Source: Thermoplasmata archaeon
GTDB lineage: Archaea; Thermoplasmatota; Thermoplasmata; Lutacidiplasmatales; UBA184
Reading direction: 5' to 3'
DNA: 46,072 bases
NCBI GenBank assembly: GCA_030040775.1
Contig: JASHTB010000122.1
Location: 1-46,072 of the forward strand
Shown: positions 10,917 through 17,257 of the stretch, in pieces
Position numbering within the stretch: position 1 is the first letter of the stretch
How the letters are laid out: the number at the start of each line of letters is the position of its first letter
Translations under genes and position numbers: made by a program
Notes under the pieces: model-generated
The model's input: only the letters and a program-made list of their open reading frames with translations
What the model was told of the DNA's origin: nothing
Database searches by the model: none

Positions 10917-13187
10917 CTAACGGATGTGCTCGAGGCTGAACGAGCCGAGGTTGAACGCGCGCTTGCTGAACGTGTATCCGACCCAGGCCCGGGCCTGCGC
11001 CTCGCCGAGGCCCCTGACCGCGAGGAACGTCTTCATCTGCTCGACCTTGAGGTTGAGCGACCCGTCGACCATGTGCTCGAGCGTCTCGAGGTCCGACTCC
11101 GAGTGCATCCCGCTTTCCAGGACGTAGTAGCCCACGGCCCCGTCGAGCTTGCGGCGACCGATGAACGGCTGAAGGAACCGGAACGAAGAGGCGGTGTCGA
11201 GCATCGCGGTGACGGTCGAGACCGACTCGAAGATGAGCCGATACGTCGGGAACTTCTCCTTGAGCTCCTCGCCGAAACCGGTGACGGTCTGGGCGAGCTG
11301 GTCGAGCACCCCCTTGTCGCTCGGCGAGAGCAGGCGGACGATCGGGCTCGACTGGGCCACCCCGACCTGGCGCGAGTAGAGGTCGACGTAGCGGACCATC
11401 GCCTTCTTCTCCGCCTCGGGAAAGCCGGGATACAGGGCCGCGAGGTCGTCCCGGACCTGCTGGTAGGTCTTGTCGGTCACGACCCAGATCGACGGGATCC
11501 CGGTCCGGAGCCCCTCGATGGAGAAGAGCCGGGCGAGCGTGTCCTTTCCGGTGTGGGACGGGCCGTTCAGGAGGACCTGGCTCCCGGGCGAAAACCCTCC
11601 GTACAGGAGGTCGTCCAGGCGCCGGATGCCACTCTTCACCTTCACCTCGGCCCCGGTCGCGGTCGCCTCCTCGCGCGCCTGGTGTGCCTCGGCCGCTCCC
11701 TCGCCGGCCGCGCTCATCGCTTCGAGGTCCGCGAGACGGGTCGCGATCTGGCTCTCGCGCGCTCGGAGCTCCGCCTCCTTCTGGGCGAGCTCGCGACGCA
11801 GCTCGTAGAGCCGACGCGTCTCGTCGGTCGCGATGCTCGTCCCGGTCGTCGCGACCTCGCGCCGGACCTCCTCGAGTCGGCGGGCCTCGATGTCGAGGGC
11901 CTGGCGCCGGGTCCCGAGCTGCTGCTCGGACTGGGCGAGGTCGCGCTCACGGACCTCGATCGGGCCCCGGCGGCGCTCGAGCTCCTCGGCGCTCAGACGG
12001 ATCTCCTCGAACCGGGAGCGAAGCTCGTTCTCGCGGGAGATGAGGTCCTTCTCCCGCTGGCTGACCTCGTCGAGCCGGCGGGTGAGCTCCTCGGCCAGCG
12101 GGGCGCGCTGCTGGGTGAGGAGCGCCTCGCGTTCCTTCGCGCGCTCCACTTCCCCGGCGAGGCTCCGCATGTCTCCCTCGAGCTGGACGATCCGACGGCG
12201 CAGTTCCGTCTCCCGCTCGACGTACTCGGCCTCGCGCCCCGTGAACTCCTCGCGCAGATGCTGCTCGAGCTCGCGCTGGGTCCTCTCGACGTCCTCGGAC
12301 CGGGACGTCGCCCGCTCCGCGCCGTTCGCCCCCGACGCACCGCCGGACCCCGGCGCCGACCGGGGCGCCCCCACCCCCTCGAGAGCGAGCATGCGGAGCT
12401 TGAGCTCGGCGATCTCATCCTCCTTGGCGCGGAGCGCGACCTCGCGCTCCTTGGCCTCCCGGGACCGGACGTACTTGATGACGGCGATCGAGCCACGCTT
12501 CACGTGCTCGACCTCGTCCTCGAGCGTCTTGCGCTTCGTGCGCTCGTCGTAGAGCTGCCGGTGGAGGTCCTGAACCTCCTGGATCATCGACGACGGGTCG
12601 AACTGGTCGGTCTTCACCCGGTCGAGGAGACCGGTGAGCCACCGAACGACGGTCTCCTCCCGCTCGAGGATCGGGGCGGGGGTGCCCTCTCCGGCCGGCC
12701 GGACGGCCGGCCCGGCCTCTGCGGAGACCGGAGCGGACGGCACGACCGGAGCCGTGGAGGCCGGCTCGCTAGAACGGATCCAATCCTCCATCGCGTGGTC
12801 GTCCCCTTCGACCCATTTCCTCAGCACGTCGGCCGACTCCTTCGGCGCGGCCGGCAGTTTGCGTCGCCGCGAGCGCTCCGGGCGACGGACCGTCCCGACC
12901 CATCGCTCGACGATGCGGTCGGAGTCGACGGTCGCTTCGGGCGCGGCCGCCTCGCCCGCCGAGGGCGTGACGCGATGAATCCGGGCGACCTCCTCGGCCG
13001 GGATCCCGGCGCGGTCGAGGTCGGCCGCCGAAGCCTCCCGGGCCGACTCGGGCGAGGTCAGGCCGGCTCCGAGCAGCCGTTCGGCCGTGTCGGGCCGCAC
13101 CCCGAGCGCGCGCGCGAGGTCGTCCGCGGTCCAGGAGTTCTGGGACCCCGGCCGGGCCGAAGAAGCGCCTGAGGTCGATCCGTCCAT
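10917..13187 (-). CDS. HhH + long coiled-coil + C-terminal KaiC/RecA-like (COG0467-type) domain protein (756 aa)
   Basis: The N-terminus has LGVRPDTAERLLGAGLTSPESAREASAADLDRAGIPAEEVARI (helix-hairpin-helix-like). About 300 aa of E/R/L-rich heptad-like sequence follows. The C-terminus has GIRRLDDLLYGGFSPGSQVLLNGPSHTGKDT (P-loop, plus-strand 11538-11564) and RLIFESVSTV. Confidence 0.8.
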   Translation of the reverse strand: MDGSTSGASSARPGSQNSWTADDLARALGVRPDTAERLLGAGLTSPESAREASAADLDRAGIPAEEVARIHRVTPSAGEAAAPEATVDSDRIVERWVGTVRRPERSRRRKLPAAPKESADVLRKWVEGDDHAMEDWIRSSEPASTAPVVPSAPVSAEAGPAVRPAGEGTPAPILEREETVVRWLTGLLDRVKTDQFDPSSMIQEVQDLHRQLYDERTKRKTLEDEVEHVKRGSIAVIKYVRSREAKEREVALRAKEDEIAELKLRMLALEGVGAPRSAPGSGGASGANGAERATSRSEDVERTQRELEQHLREEFTGREAEYVERETELRRRIVQLEGDMRSLAGEVERAKEREALLTQQRAPLAEELTRRLDEVSQREKDLISRENELRSRFEEIRLSAEELERRRGPIEVRERDLAQSEQQLGTRRQALDIEARRLEEVRREVATTGTSIATDETRRLYELRRELAQKEAELRARESQIATRLADLEAMSAAGEGAAEAHQAREEATATGAEVKVKSGIRRLDDLLYGGFSPGSQVLLNGPSHTGKDTLARLFSIEGLRTGIPSIWVVTDKTYQQVRDDLAALYPGFPEAEKKAMVRYVDLYSRQVGVAQSSPIVRLLSPSDKGVLDQLAQTVTGFGEELKEKFPTYRLIFESVSTVTAMLDTASSFRFLQPFIGRRKLDGAVGYYVLESGMHSESDLETLEHMVDGSLNLKVEQMKTFLAVRGLGEAQARAWVGYTFSKRAFNLGSFSLEHIR

Positions 13188-15100: not shown

Positions 15101-15586
15101 ATGGTCGTCAAGCGTCAGTGCTCGTTCTGCGCGGCCGAGATCGAGCCGGGGACCGGCACGATGTTCGTCAAGCGGGACGGGACCGTCTTCCACTTCTGCT
15201 CCTCTTCCTGCCGCAAGCAGCAGCTCGAGCTCGGGCGCGTCGGCCACCGGTTCAAGTGGACCCGCGCGCACGCGCTCAAGATCGCGGCGGACCGCTCCTC
15301 CGCGGAGAGGCCCTCTGTCGCCGCCGCGCCCCGAGGACCGACGACCGCGAAGCAGCCGGCGCGCGCCCACGCTCCGTCGCGGGCCGGGGCGGCCGCCGGG
15401 GCGAAGGAGGCCACCGGGACGAAGGCGGCTGCCTCCGCCGAGGTAGCCGCGCCCGCTGCGACGCCTCCCTCTGAGCCGGCCGGACCTCCGGCCGAGGCTC
15501 CTGCTCCTTCGGAGGAGAAGCCGAAGCCGCGCGCCCGAACCCGGAAGAAAACGGCAAAGCCTCCTGAGAAGGCCGACAAGGAGTAG
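15101..15586 (+). CDS. rpl24e: 50S ribosomal protein L24e with a long low-complexity C-terminal extension
   Basis: CSFCAAEIEPGTGTMFVKRDGTVFHFCSSSCRKQ is the L24e zinc-ribbon core (about 60 aa). An A/P/K/E-rich tail of about 100 aa follows. Confidence 0.9.
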   Translation: MVVKRQCSFCAAEIEPGTGTMFVKRDGTVFHFCSSSCRKQQLELGRVGHRFKWTRAHALKIAADRSSAERPSVAAAPRGPTTAKQPARAHAPSRAGAAAGAKEATGTKAAASAEVAAPAATPPSEPAGPPAEAPAPSEEKPKPRARTRKKTAKPPEKADKE

Positions 15587-15634
15587 CGGCTACCATCGCC
15601 GGCCCATCCTCCAGCGTGCGCGTCCACGAGAATC

Positions 15635-15642
15635 GGTAAACC
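15635..15642 (+). promoter_or_regulatory. TATA-like box for the Cas4-like gene
   Basis: GGTAAACC lies 25-32 nt upstream of ATG 15667. The same GGTAAAC core occurs upstream of the gene at 36836. Confidence 0.4.
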
Positions 15643-15666
15643 TTCCCGCGGCCGGTTTCGGCCTCG

Positions 15667-15939
15667 ATGGCCGCGGACGACCGCTGGACCTCTCCCTCCG
15701 AGCTCGCGGACTATGCCTACTGCCCCCGGTCGCACTGGTACGGTAGGCGCCCACCGCCCGGGGGACCGAGCGGCGGGTCGACCGAACGCAGCCGGGCGGG
15801 GCTCCGATACCATCGACGGGTGCTGACCGCGGAACGCCACCGTTCGGAGCGGGGGACGGCCTATTGGGCCGGGGTCGTCGTGGGCGCGGTCCTCGTGCTC
15901 GTCGGGTTCGTATGGGTCCTTTCGTACTTTCGCTCCTAG
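15667..15939 (+). CDS. Cas4-like nuclease, N-terminal fragment (first Fe-S cysteine) with a C-terminal TM helix (90 aa)
   Basis: SELADYAYCPRSHWY matches the Cas4/DUF83 N-terminal Y-x-x-CPR-x-x-W/Y motif (Cys codon 15721-15723). The fragment ends with the hydrophobic YWAGVVVGAVLVLVGFVWVLSYF and then TAG at 15937-15939. Confidence 0.6.
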   Translation: MAADDRWTSPSELADYAYCPRSHWYGRRPPPGGPSGGSTERSRAGLRYHRRVLTAERHRSERGTAYWAGVVVGAVLVLVGFVWVLSYFRS

Positions 15940-16445
15940 GGTCCCCGCTGGGGGGAGTCGTCCTCCTCCTCGTGGGACTCTTCCTCGCCGGATGGGGCGC
16001 TCGTGCCCTCTCCGACCGCCGCCGGGACGGTCGGCTCGGGAAGCTCGTCGCGGTCGATGCCGGGTCCCCCGTCCTCCTGCGGTCGGACCGTTACCGCCTC
16101 CAGGGCCGTCCGGACGTCCTGCGCCGAACCTCCGACGGGACCGTGGTCCCGGTGGAGGTCAAGAGCCGCCGAAGCCCGCGGGGTGGGCCGAGCTATTCCC
16201 ACCTCGTCCAGGTGTGGGCGTACTGTCTGCTCGTCGAGGAAACGACCGGGCGCACCCCGCCGTTCGGCATCCTTCGCTACGCGGACGGAGAGTTCCGGGT
16301 CCGGTGGGACGACCCGGCCCGCAAGGAGCTCCTTGCGCTCCGCGAGGAGGTCGCCCGGCCGTACGACGGGCGCGCAAACCCGTCGCCCGAACGCTGTGCG
16401 CGGTGTCGGTGGGTCGAGGTCTGTGACGTCCGGGCCCGAGGCTAG
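15912..16445 (+). CDS. Cas4-like PD-(D/E)xK nuclease core with an N-terminal TM helix (177 aa)
   Basis: ATG 15912 overlaps the upstream ORF by 28 nt in the -1 frame. The TM helix is LLGSPLGGVVLLLVGLFLAGWGA. Nuclease motifs are GRPDVL...VVPVEVKS (D...E-x-K, EVK at 16155-16163), HLVQVWAYCLL (Q-x-x-x-Y) and C-terminal CARCRWVEVC (C-x2-C-x5-C, 16395-16424). Confidence 0.7.
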   Translation: MGPFVLSLLGSPLGGVVLLLVGLFLAGWGARALSDRRRDGRLGKLVAVDAGSPVLLRSDRYRLQGRPDVLRRTSDGTVVPVEVKSRRSPRGGPSYSHLVQVWAYCLLVEETTGRTPPFGILRYADGEFRVRWDDPARKELLALREEVARPYDGRANPSPERCARCRWVEVCDVRARG

Positions 16446-16453
16446 ACCCGGAA

Positions 16454-17257
16454 CTACCGAAGGCGGCTGAAGTACACGTCGGTACGGTACGCTAGCCGGA
16501 TCGTGCGGCGGCCCCGCGTGACGGGGTCGGTGGCGAGGAGCCGGCGCACCTTCTCCGAGACCGCCCGCCGCTCGGCGGCGGGAAGCACCGCGATCGTGCT
16601 CACCGAGAGGGTGCGCTCGACGAACATCGACGGGGTCCCCTCCTGGAAGTGACGGAAGGCTCGGTGCTCGAGCGGCCGGAATCCCGTCCCTTTCTCCGAA
16701 AACGCCCGGGCTAGCACGACGCGCCGGTACCGGCGTCCGGTCGCCTCGCGCCAGACGGGAGCTCCCCCGCGCTCGGCCGCGACGATCTCGGAGAGGCGTC
16801 GGGACCACCCGACCGACTCGTCGCGGGTGTTCCAGACGAGGCCGAGACCACCCCCGGGACGCAGCACGCGCCGGATCTCGCGCAGGGCCGGTCGGGGGCG
16901 GAACCAGTGGAACGCCTGAGCGCAGACGACCGCGTCCGCAAACCCCCTCGGGAGCGGGATCCGCTCGGCGGTCCCGTCGAGCACGGGCACGTCGGGGACC
17001 GTTCGCTCGAAGACGCGACGCATGCCGGCCATCGGCTCGACCGCGATGCGCGCCGCTCCGAGGGGCGCGAGCGCTCGCGTGAACTTCCCGGTCCCCGCGC
17101 CCAGGTCGACCACGGTCCGGCCCGGGCCGATTCTGAGCGCGCGACCGAGGCATCGGACGGCCTCGGCCGGATAGTCCGGGCGTCCTCGCTCGTACGTCTC
17201 CGCGGCCCGGTCAAATCCACGGGCGATCGGATGGGTCCGGGCCCGGCGCAAGGGCAT
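16454..17257 (-). CDS. Class I SAM-dependent methyltransferase
   Basis: VVDLGAGTGKFTRAL (motif I), AVVCAQAFHWF and LRPGGGLGLVW are present. Confidence 0.8.
   Translation of the reverse strand: MPLRRARTHPIARGFDRAAETYERGRPDYPAEAVRCLGRALRIGPGRTVVDLGAGTGKFTRALAPLGAARIAVEPMAGMRRVFERTVPDVPVLDGTAERIPLPRGFADAVVCAQAFHWFRPRPALREIRRVLRPGGGLGLVWNTRDESVGWSRRLSEIVAAERGGAPVWREATGRRYRRVVLARAFSEKGTGFRPLEHRAFRHFQEGTPSMFVERTLSVSTIAVLPAAERRAVSEKVRRLLATDPVTRGRRTIRLAYRTDVYFSRLR

Follow-up and report, generated by a model that had tools for sequence, protein, structure and literature searches.

How does a Cas4-like nuclease come to be written in two overlapping reading frames, each of which carries part of its signature residues and a hydrophobic helix? 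The question is raised by ORF1 and ORF2, two open reading frames (ORFs) on a 46,072-nucleotide contig (GenBank JASHTB010000122.1, hereafter the window; G+C content about 71%) of a peat-sampled archaeon of the class Thermoplasmata. A first-pass annotation of the sequence had left two possibilities: a frameshift, real or artefactual, that breaks one protein with a transmembrane (TM) hairpin, or two membrane-anchored polypeptides that jointly assemble an iron-sulphur (Fe-S) cluster. Here, we found that ORF1 and ORF2 are two genes and that their split is conserved. With a probability of roughly 0.75, we consider that these separately translated genes encode a two-subunit, membrane-anchored Fe-S DNA nuclease of the Cas4/RecB family, which would be completed only in the heterodimer. 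The features on which the argument draws are the following:

15667..15939, + strand: ORF1, proposed subunit A, 90 amino acids (aa); Cas4-like N-terminal helical module and predicted C-terminal tail-anchor helix (alignment of 77 homologues, profile match).
15712..15741, + strand: YAYCPRSHWY motif, ORF1 residues 16-25, with C19 as the putative first Fe-S cluster ligand (invariance, alignment to YCPR of Pcal_0546).
15799..15813, + strand: G45...H49 motif of ORF1, putatively equivalent to the His that binds metal in Cas4, which is His62 in SSO0001 (invariance, alignment to 4R5Q).
15862..15924, + strand: TM1, predicted helix at about residues 66-86 of ORF1, followed by only about 4 residues (hydropathy, AlphaFold2 helix).
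15912..15939, + strand: 28-nt overlap of ORF1 and ORF2, a junction of the translational-coupling type (ORF2 ATG at 15912).
15912..16445, + strand: ORF2, proposed subunit B, 177 aa; predicted N-terminal membrane helix, PD-(D/E)XK core and three C-terminal Cys (Pfam).
15936..16001, + strand: TM2, predicted helix at about residues 9-30 of ORF2, followed by R/K-rich RALSDRRRD (hydropathy, AlphaFold2 helix).
16113..16163, + strand: putative catalytic residues D68...E82-V-K84 of ORF2, RecB motifs II and III (invariance across alignments).
16209..16223, + strand: Q100-V-W-A-Y104 of ORF2, a Q-x3-Y motif, followed by invariant C105 (invariance).
16395..16424, + strand: C162-x2-C165-x5-C171 of ORF2, three putative C-terminal Fe-S cluster ligands (invariant in all alignments).

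ORF1 ends in a TAG codon at 15937-15939, and ORF2, the called gene P0001 of the protein collection, likewise ends in TAG and lies in the -1 frame. The ORF1 protein reads MAADDRWTSPSELADYAYCPRSHWY...RAGLRYHRRVL...AYWAGVVVGAVLVLVGFVWVLSYFRS; the ORF2 protein opens with MGPFVLSLLGSPLGGVVLLLVGLFLAGWGARALSDRRRD... and later contains GRPD(68), PVE(82)VK(84), Q(100)VWAY(104)C and C(162)ARC(165)RWVEVC(171). The reading frames of the window bear out the coordinates, the 28-nt overlap and the frame relation of the first-pass annotation, and its four motifs (YAYCPRSHWY, D...EVK, Q-x-x-x-Y and C-x2-C-x5-C) all lie where it had placed them. An upstream TTG at 15864 was tried as the ORF2 start and rejected: the Arg-rich extension that it would add is unconserved, and the homologues begin at the position of the ATG at 15912.

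Is the split genuine? In a scan with one genome per species, 489 genomes carried a relative of ORF2. Loci were extracted from the best 80 of these 489, nearly all of them metagenome-assembled genomes (MAGs) of Thermoplasmata, and were combined with six obtained earlier into a set of 85. An ORF1 homologue stands immediately upstream, with ORF2 in the -1 frame, in 84 of the 85 loci, which stem from different species, studies and sequencing platforms. Junction statistics were taken from the 77 non-redundant loci in which starts could be assigned. In every one of them, ORF2 begins at a start codon of its own (41 ATG, 31 GTG, 5 TTG) and overlaps the ORF1 stop by 4 (16 loci), 7, 10, 13, 16, 19 (25 loci), 22 (17 loci) or 28 nt; the 16 shortest are the classic four-base ATGA/GTGA overlaps of translationally coupled genes. 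In 34 of the 77, the ORF2 start is preceded, at -16 to -4, by a strong Shine-Dalgarno-like 5-mer, an about 5-fold enrichment over control positions (9%). A query of both proteins joined matched 555 protein clusters, the best 120 of which are all 159-190 aa long and thus correspond to ORF2 alone, and the 56 ORF1-related clusters are all of 83-95 aa; among these listed clusters (56 of the ORF1 type, the best 120 of 555 of the ORF2 type) no fused close homologue was found. A comparison with independent assemblies, made on Logan contigs rather than raw read pile-ups, covered four separate peat DNA runs from two studies: all four are identical to the window over 15600-16500, with 0 substitutions, 0 gaps and a word depth of 8-48x, so that the check for indels at the junction, which the first-pass annotation had proposed, revealed none. 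Of its two possibilities, that of two membrane-anchored polypeptides is the one supported by the reproducible split, the 84 of 85 loci, the start codon of ORF2 and the lack of fused clusters among those listed.

The one exception, L051 (OY970259.1), is the long-read chromosome of a Thermoplasmata MAG, in which the pair reads as a single frame of 256 codons only owing to a frame change in a stretch of six G. This stretch, at about 2863-2868 (region 2840-2940), moves ORF1 into the frame of ORF2, and TM1 is read out of frame; with the frame restored, the usual ORF1 ending in TGA reappears. We therefore rejected L051 as a natural fusion, and its single frame is probably a homopolymer error in the public assembly.

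Do the two genes together hold what a Cas4 nuclease needs? ORF2 matches the Pfam models PDDEXK_1 (PF12705; 36.8 bits, cut-off 22) and Cas_Cas4 (PF01930; 29.2 bits, cut-off 22.7), the latter just over model positions 53-158 of 160, which are its C-terminal two thirds. As judged from the alignments, it is ORF1 that supplies the N-terminal third of the Cas_Cas4 model absent from ORF2. Against the NCBIfam equivalog TIGR00372, ORF2 scores 56.7 bits, under the cut-off of 65, and a PADLOC search returned only generic Cas4 and DruK nuclease matches. ORF1 alone had no match in Pfam, NCBIfam (including TIGR00372) or PADLOC. A profile of its 77 homologues, however, matches Pcal_0546, a Cas4 protein, in its N-terminal Cys/His region (4R5Q residues 54-114, E = 2.7e-4), with YCPR aligned on YCPR and G..H on G..H, and ORF1 and ORF2 joined, with both hydrophobic helices deleted, match the Cas4 protein SSO0001 (4IC1, E = 8e-4). 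Such similarity to Cas4 goes far beyond what chance would give.

The conserved residues follow the same division. In the alignment of 77 ORF1 homologues (A2), M1, C19, P20, R21, G45 and H49 are invariant at a mean column identity of just 48%. In the alignment of 77 ORF2 homologues from split loci (A3), D68, E82, K84, H97, Q100, Y104, C105, C162, C165 and C171 are invariant; the equivalents of D68, E82 and K84 and the three C-terminal Cys are so, too, in 16 unsplit and 13 bacterial relatives. The catalytic motif set of Cas4 is present, but over two polypeptides, with H49 in ORF1 and D68, E82, K84, Q100 and Y104 in ORF2, as is the pattern of four cluster cysteines, C19 from ORF1 and C162, C165 and C171 from ORF2, all invariant. 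No single soluble polypeptide holds all motifs; they are spread over two genes, each with a membrane helix. In SSO0001, the residues His62, Asp99 and Glu113 coordinate Mn2+ together with a backbone carbonyl, and the Fe-S cluster has one Cys ligand near the N-terminus and three near the C-terminus (PMC12501428, PMC13621843). Since H49 is the apparent counterpart of His62, ORF1 would provide part of the active site, and with the ligands split between ORF1 and ORF2, conservation and homology suggest a composite Fe-S cluster and a composite metal site, each built from both polypeptides.

A reading in which ORF1 is either a remnant in decay or some small, unrelated membrane protein, and ORF2 alone is an N-terminally anchored nuclease with three Cys, draws on the failure of ORF1 to match any Pfam, NCBIfam or PADLOC model by itself, on some bacterial ORF2-like genes that have no adjacent ORF1, and on the cluster-independent activity reported for one solo-Cas4 (PMC13621843). 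We consider it very improbable. ORF1 is retained in 84 of the 85 loci at a divergence down to about 30% identity, and the residues that stay invariant in it are exactly the functional ones of Cas4 (C19, P20, R21, G45 and H49). In addition, its profile matches the N-terminus of Cas4, unsplit relatives keep the equivalent residues invariant in their N-terminal module, and in 51 of 80 bacterial loci a similar ORF1 gene stands upstream of ORF2.

The proposed heterodimer would be held at the membrane. We scored a TM helix where the best 19-residue window had a mean Kyte-Doolittle hydropathy of at least 1.6. By this measure, the C-terminus of ORF1 contains such a segment in 76 of 77 homologues (2.56 for the window's own), and the N-terminus of ORF2 in 75 of 77, starting at about residue 8, while the soluble parts have median values of -0.2 and 0.7. 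Over the 77 homologues, TM1 is preceded by a median of 3 Lys/Arg and followed by 1, with a median tail of 2 residues, and TM2 is preceded by 0 and followed by 4. On sequence, ORF1 fits the definition of a tail-anchored membrane protein, which has a single helix at the extreme C-terminus and its functional N-terminal domain in the cytoplasm. Applying the positive-inside rule to this charge distribution, we infer that ORF1 is N-in/C-out and tail-anchored and that ORF2 is N-out/C-in, and therefore that both soluble halves would be cytoplasmic and the two helices able to pair in an antiparallel manner. Each helix carries a nearly invariant central glycine (G73 in ORF1, G22 in ORF2), which is compatible with close helix packing. 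The segments that had been put forward as TM helices thus behave as such in hydropathy and in conserved charge bias.

A structural prediction is consistent with this arrangement. ORF1 and ORF2 were given to AlphaFold2 as one artificial chain, in an alignment that also contained unsplit relatives and proteins of the ORF2 type. The concatenated model (mean pLDDT 89.9, pTM 0.84) has two short N-terminal helices, a continuous helix at 40-90 that begins at the G..H motif and includes TM1, a short turn, a helix at 102-132 that comprises TM2 and its cytoplasmic continuation, and a beta-sheet core. The joined chain is thus predicted to have a Cas4-like core and a long helical hairpin. In Foldseek, the model was assigned a probability of 1.0 to AdnAB, SSO0001 (4IC1), type I-C Cas4 (8D3L), Cas4-Cas1 (7MI5), Dna2, ACE1, MGME1 and EXO5, at modest TM-scores that we put down to the protruding hairpin.

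Is the hairpin present in uncut form elsewhere? An exhaustive search with the ORF2-family profile gave 1380 representative clusters at E <= 1e-3 and 568 at E <= 1e-10, most of them of about 175 aa with an N-terminal hydrophobic helix, together with some longer single chains. These begin with the Y-C-P and G..H motifs, continue with two, four or more hydrophobic helices and end in an ORF2-type core. In an alignment of 16 such unsplit proteins (A6), C16 (the counterpart of C19 in ORF1), G41, H45, D137, E150, K152, Q167, Y171 and the three C-terminal Cys are invariant, a set equal to that of the split pair; PDDEXK_1 extends end to end over several of them, and several exceed the TIGR00372 cut-off, at 75-99 bits. 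A crude count of helices between the N-terminal module and the core, over all proteins fetched, separates a class with two helices (9 proteins, 243-301 aa), one with four (97 proteins, about 331 aa, with examples in Thermoplasmatota) and one with eight (9 proteins, 543-559 aa); the 18 proteins with odd counts are mostly equal in length to an even class. Even counts are what a topology with both modules on the same side requires. In P0209, P0236, P0238, P0248, P0318 and P0331-P0446, all unsplit, a motif ..L.WL..A..FLY.. recurs in alternate helices. The helix classes suggest repeated duplication of the helical hairpin inside the nuclease gene.

The unsplit profile reaches 1861 clusters at E <= 1e-5, and the sources, given as Thermoplasmata, Thermoplasmatota and Candidatus Natronoplasma, name these proteins 'CRISPR-associated protein Cas4'. 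A single chain of 266 aa with two TM helices is found in a cultivated methanogen, Methermicoccus shengliensis (WP_052353351.1), and its model (pLDDT 92.9, helices at 39-84 and 88-119) matches the plan of the window's. These single chains share with the window pair the invariant residues of both modules, the insertion point of the helices and the predicted architecture. They differ in being one polypeptide, in genomic context in the three cases examined, and in carrying H-R-N-H ahead of the C-terminal Cys where the window has P-Y-D-G-R-A. Given single-chain relatives with matching residues, the window clade looks like the two-helix form cut between its helices. Thus, the single protein with a TM hairpin that had been envisaged for the window does exist as a natural architecture among its relatives; it is not the state of the window itself. 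Nor are the homologues ordinary soluble Cas4 proteins.

Split pairs occur in Bacteria as well. In L088 (GCA_020630175.1; pair at L088:2758-3519) and L089 (pair at L089:2755-3534), an ORF1-type gene of 79-80 aa ends 3 nt before an ORF2-like gene of 172-177 aa; the small protein has a ...YxFC(K/A)(R/K)xWW... motif, a G..AHE motif and a hydrophobic helix at its C-terminus. One such cluster comes from Chloroflexota. Both pairs lie in the order SSB, DUF3467, a 215-aa protein, ORF1, ORF2, NAD kinase and RecN. Of the best 80 bacterial loci from a metagenome scan, 51 had an ORF1-type gene on the same strand, and about 12 of the others had too little upstream DNA. Bacterial pairs take all three frame relations, with gaps from -11 to about +40 nt. 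Bacterial loci that have sufficient upstream DNA but seem to lack a nearby ORF1-type gene on the same strand include L098, L099, L102, L106, L128, L137, L144, L146, L152, L164 and L166.

Based on these observations, we propose that subunit A would be tail-anchored, with cytoplasmic N-terminal helices that carry C19 and H49 and one C-terminal helix through the membrane, and that subunit B would have a short external tail, one membrane helix and a cytoplasmic core with D-ExK-QxxxY and C-x2-C-x5-C. TM1 and TM2 may pair in the membrane as an antiparallel hairpin that joins the two halves. Subunit A would contribute one Cys ligand to the Fe-S cluster and subunit B the other three, and the Mn/Mg site would be made up of a His from A together with Asp, Glu and Lys from B. 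Neither subunit should be active alone. Such a pair may have originated from a single-chain Cas4-like protein with a membrane hairpin that was cut between TM1 and TM2. Heterodimer assembly, cluster binding, nuclease activity and topology are the parts of this proposal that we infer.

Several points weigh against the two-subunit membrane nuclease. The TM assignment derives from hydropathy, charge bias and AlphaFold helices. The alignment depth over the N-terminal part of the model comes from unsplit relatives only, and the chain was artificial; its confidence therefore shows compatibility with a heterodimer, not its formation. In about 17 of the 80 bacterial ORF2-like loci, no ORF1 homologue adjoins the gene even though the upstream DNA is long enough, and because of these loci the core subunit may sometimes act alone or with a partner encoded elsewhere. 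The cluster of the solo-Cas4 of M. mazei was reported to be dispensable for activity (PMC13621843). The weakest step is the biological role, which is a guess from context only.

Could the two frames instead be joined during translation? Programmed -1 frameshifting, or another form of recoding, would yield a fused TM-hairpin protein, possibly beside separate products. Two observations would fit such a mechanism: ORF2 occupies the -1 frame in each of the 84 Thermoplasmata loci, and ahead of the ORF1 stop both frames usually stay open over more than 100 nt. A constant -1 frame, however, is also expected from coupled overlaps of 4, 7, ... 28 nt inherited from one ancestor. No slippery heptamer of the form X_XXY_YYZ is found in the last 60 nt of ORF1 in any of the 77 loci, the junction sequence is unconserved across them, and 16 of them overlap by ATGA or GTGA alone; in L066, the ORF2 frame opens just 4 nt ahead of the ORF1 stop. 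Moreover, ORF2 retains a start codon throughout, with an enriched Shine-Dalgarno-like motif, and the bacterial pairs are bound neither to one frame relation nor to an overlap. Recoding is thus highly unlikely.

The genomic context bears on a further alternative, namely that the pair is an ordinary adaptation Cas4 that trims prespacers with Cas1-Cas2 and is membrane-bound by chance. In the window, a KaiC-like ATPase gene (- strand), a Tyr/Trp-tRNA synthetase gene and the genes for L7Ae, S28e and L24e precede ORF1 and ORF2, which are followed by genes for a methyltransferase (- strand), a membrane protein (- strand), NDK, Sua5/YrdC and methionine aminopeptidase. This order is kept in relatives, and in L005 the pair sits directly between L24e and NDK. 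Tandem Repeats Finder detected no CRISPR array in the 46 kb of the window, and no cas genes were found near its pair, where the neighbours tested are housekeeping genes, or near the split and unsplit relatives examined; the first-pass annotation had been right on both counts. No viral relatives appeared among IMG/VR contigs searched with archaeal and bacterial profiles. Such a context is typical of a housekeeping gene passed on vertically ('solo-Cas4'), not of a defence-island or adaptation gene. The best family matches of the pair are indeed Cas4 models, and sources name its relatives 'CRISPR-associated exonuclease Cas4', but the missing array, the housekeeping neighbours in all contexts examined, the location inside a conserved ribosomal-protein/NDK cluster and the score of ORF2 below the TIGR00372 equivalog cut-off speak against it. 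A role in CRISPR adaptation is unlikely, and an adaptation Cas4 that happens to be membrane-bound is very hard to credit.

Finally, a 1-nt indel in assembly or sequencing that breaks one gene of about 260 codons, a notion encouraged by frames that differ by one base, by the single-chain architecture of relatives and by the single frame of the long-read L051, deserves almost no credence in view of four identical independent runs at 8-48x word depth, the split shared by 84 of 85 loci, the uniformly short ORF1 and ORF2 clusters listed and the likely error in L051 itself. The frameshift that the first-pass annotation had considered, whether real or artefactual, is contradicted by the four assemblies, the 84 split loci and the absence of heptamers in all 77; the split in the window reflects neither faulty assembly nor recoding.

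How does the window pair compare with known systems? Cas4/DUF83 proteins (PF01930, TIGR00372; SSO0001 4IC1, Pcal_0546 4R5Q) share with it the His, Asp, Glu-x-Lys and Gln-x3-Tyr motifs, one N-terminal and three C-terminal Cys and the predicted core fold; the Cas4 subunits of type I-C and I-G Cas4-Cas1-Cas2 complexes (8D3L, 7MI4/7MI5) are further reference examples. The Cas4 proteins known so far are soluble and consist of one chain of about 160-220 aa, whereas in the window pair a predicted membrane hairpin separates the N-terminal module from the core, and a break between its two helices distributes the chain over two genes. In contrast to CRISPR Cas4, the pair has no cas or CRISPR context in the window and the loci examined. 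Solo-Cas4 proteins (Hudaiberdiev et al. 2017, PMC5704561; M. mazei, PMC12501428) resemble it in being encoded away from cas operons but are described as soluble, the M. mazei Solo-Cas4 forming a decamer in solution (PMC12501428). The Fe-S nuclease domains of AddB/AdnAB, Dna2, EXO5, MGME1 and ACE1 belong to the same structural class (Foldseek probability 1.0). They are soluble, none of them is membrane-anchored or split inside the nuclease fold, and in AddB/AdnAB and Dna2 the nuclease domain is fused to helicase modules.

In the phylogenomic survey of Cas4 (PMC5704561), the words 'Thermoplasmata' and 'split' are absent, and 'membrane' occurs only in an unrelated gene name. Full-text literature searches found no description of transmembrane Cas4-like proteins, although absence from the searchable literature is not proof. 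Within that literature, the suggestion that a membrane-tethered Cas4-like nuclease would be novel holds. The databases already contain thousands of membrane-embedded Cas4-like proteins, labelled simply as Cas4. The window pair thus appears to be a split, membrane-anchored member of a large, unremarked membrane-embedded Cas4 branch that is apparently undescribed.

Some further observations concern the neighbouring genes. The L24e gene (15101-15586, + strand) encodes 161 aa, just residues 5-56 of which form the Pfam L24e domain; the rest is an Ala/Pro/Lys-rich low-complexity tail that includes an 18-nt tandem repeat at 15391-15433. In homologous loci, the L24e genes are also long (139-156 aa). 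On the - strand at 10917-13187, a protein of 755 aa combines a C-terminal KaiC-like ATPase/DUF7504 domain with a long N-terminal region that has no family match; its gene adjoins the tRNA synthetase gene in related loci, too. Scans for sigma-70 promoters and intrinsic terminators gave nothing, with models that are uninformative for an archaeon.

What might such an enzyme do? Because of the housekeeping neighbours, the vertical conservation and the lack of cas genes or viral copies in the searches made, we tentatively consider it most likely that the two-subunit nuclease serves constitutively to process or degrade DNA ends on the inner side of the cytoplasmic membrane. Its substrates might be incoming or membrane-attached linear DNA, or repair intermediates. 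More tentatively still, and with more doubt than conviction, membrane-embedded Cas4-like nucleases might constitute a large overlooked branch of the Cas4 family in Archaea and Bacteria, made up of single chains with 2, 4 or 8 helices and of two-gene split forms, in which the hairpin would be more than an anchor, namely an assembly or gating device that rebuilds the cluster and the active site only at the membrane, and which would survey or process DNA there as a constitutive, CRISPR-independent barrier or in a DNA-uptake or repair function. If so, this would be a nuclease acting on DNA that crosses, or is attached to, the cytoplasmic membrane.

There is also a lesson for annotation. The partner of 87-90 aa is often uncalled or hypothetical, and the core is labelled 'CRISPR-associated Cas4' though no cas genes lie nearby. 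Intact ORF1 genes went uncalled by annotation pipelines at L001:3756-4019, L006:2759-3022 and L088:2758-2997; where called, ORF1 is usually a 'hypothetical protein', and ORF2 a 'CRISPR-associated exonuclease Cas4'.

To our knowledge, Cas4, AddB and Dna2-type Fe-S nucleases have been treated as soluble enzymes. The locus described here bears on the function of Cas4 genes outside CRISPR loci: it presents a well-conserved, membrane-tied, two-subunit form whose cluster and catalytic metal site would span the subunit interface, and it hints that some of the solo-Cas4 proteins work at the membrane. As a natural split enzyme, the pair may help to probe the roles of the Cas4 cluster and of the N-terminal module, and the single-chain form in the cultivated Methermicoccus shengliensis makes experiments feasible.

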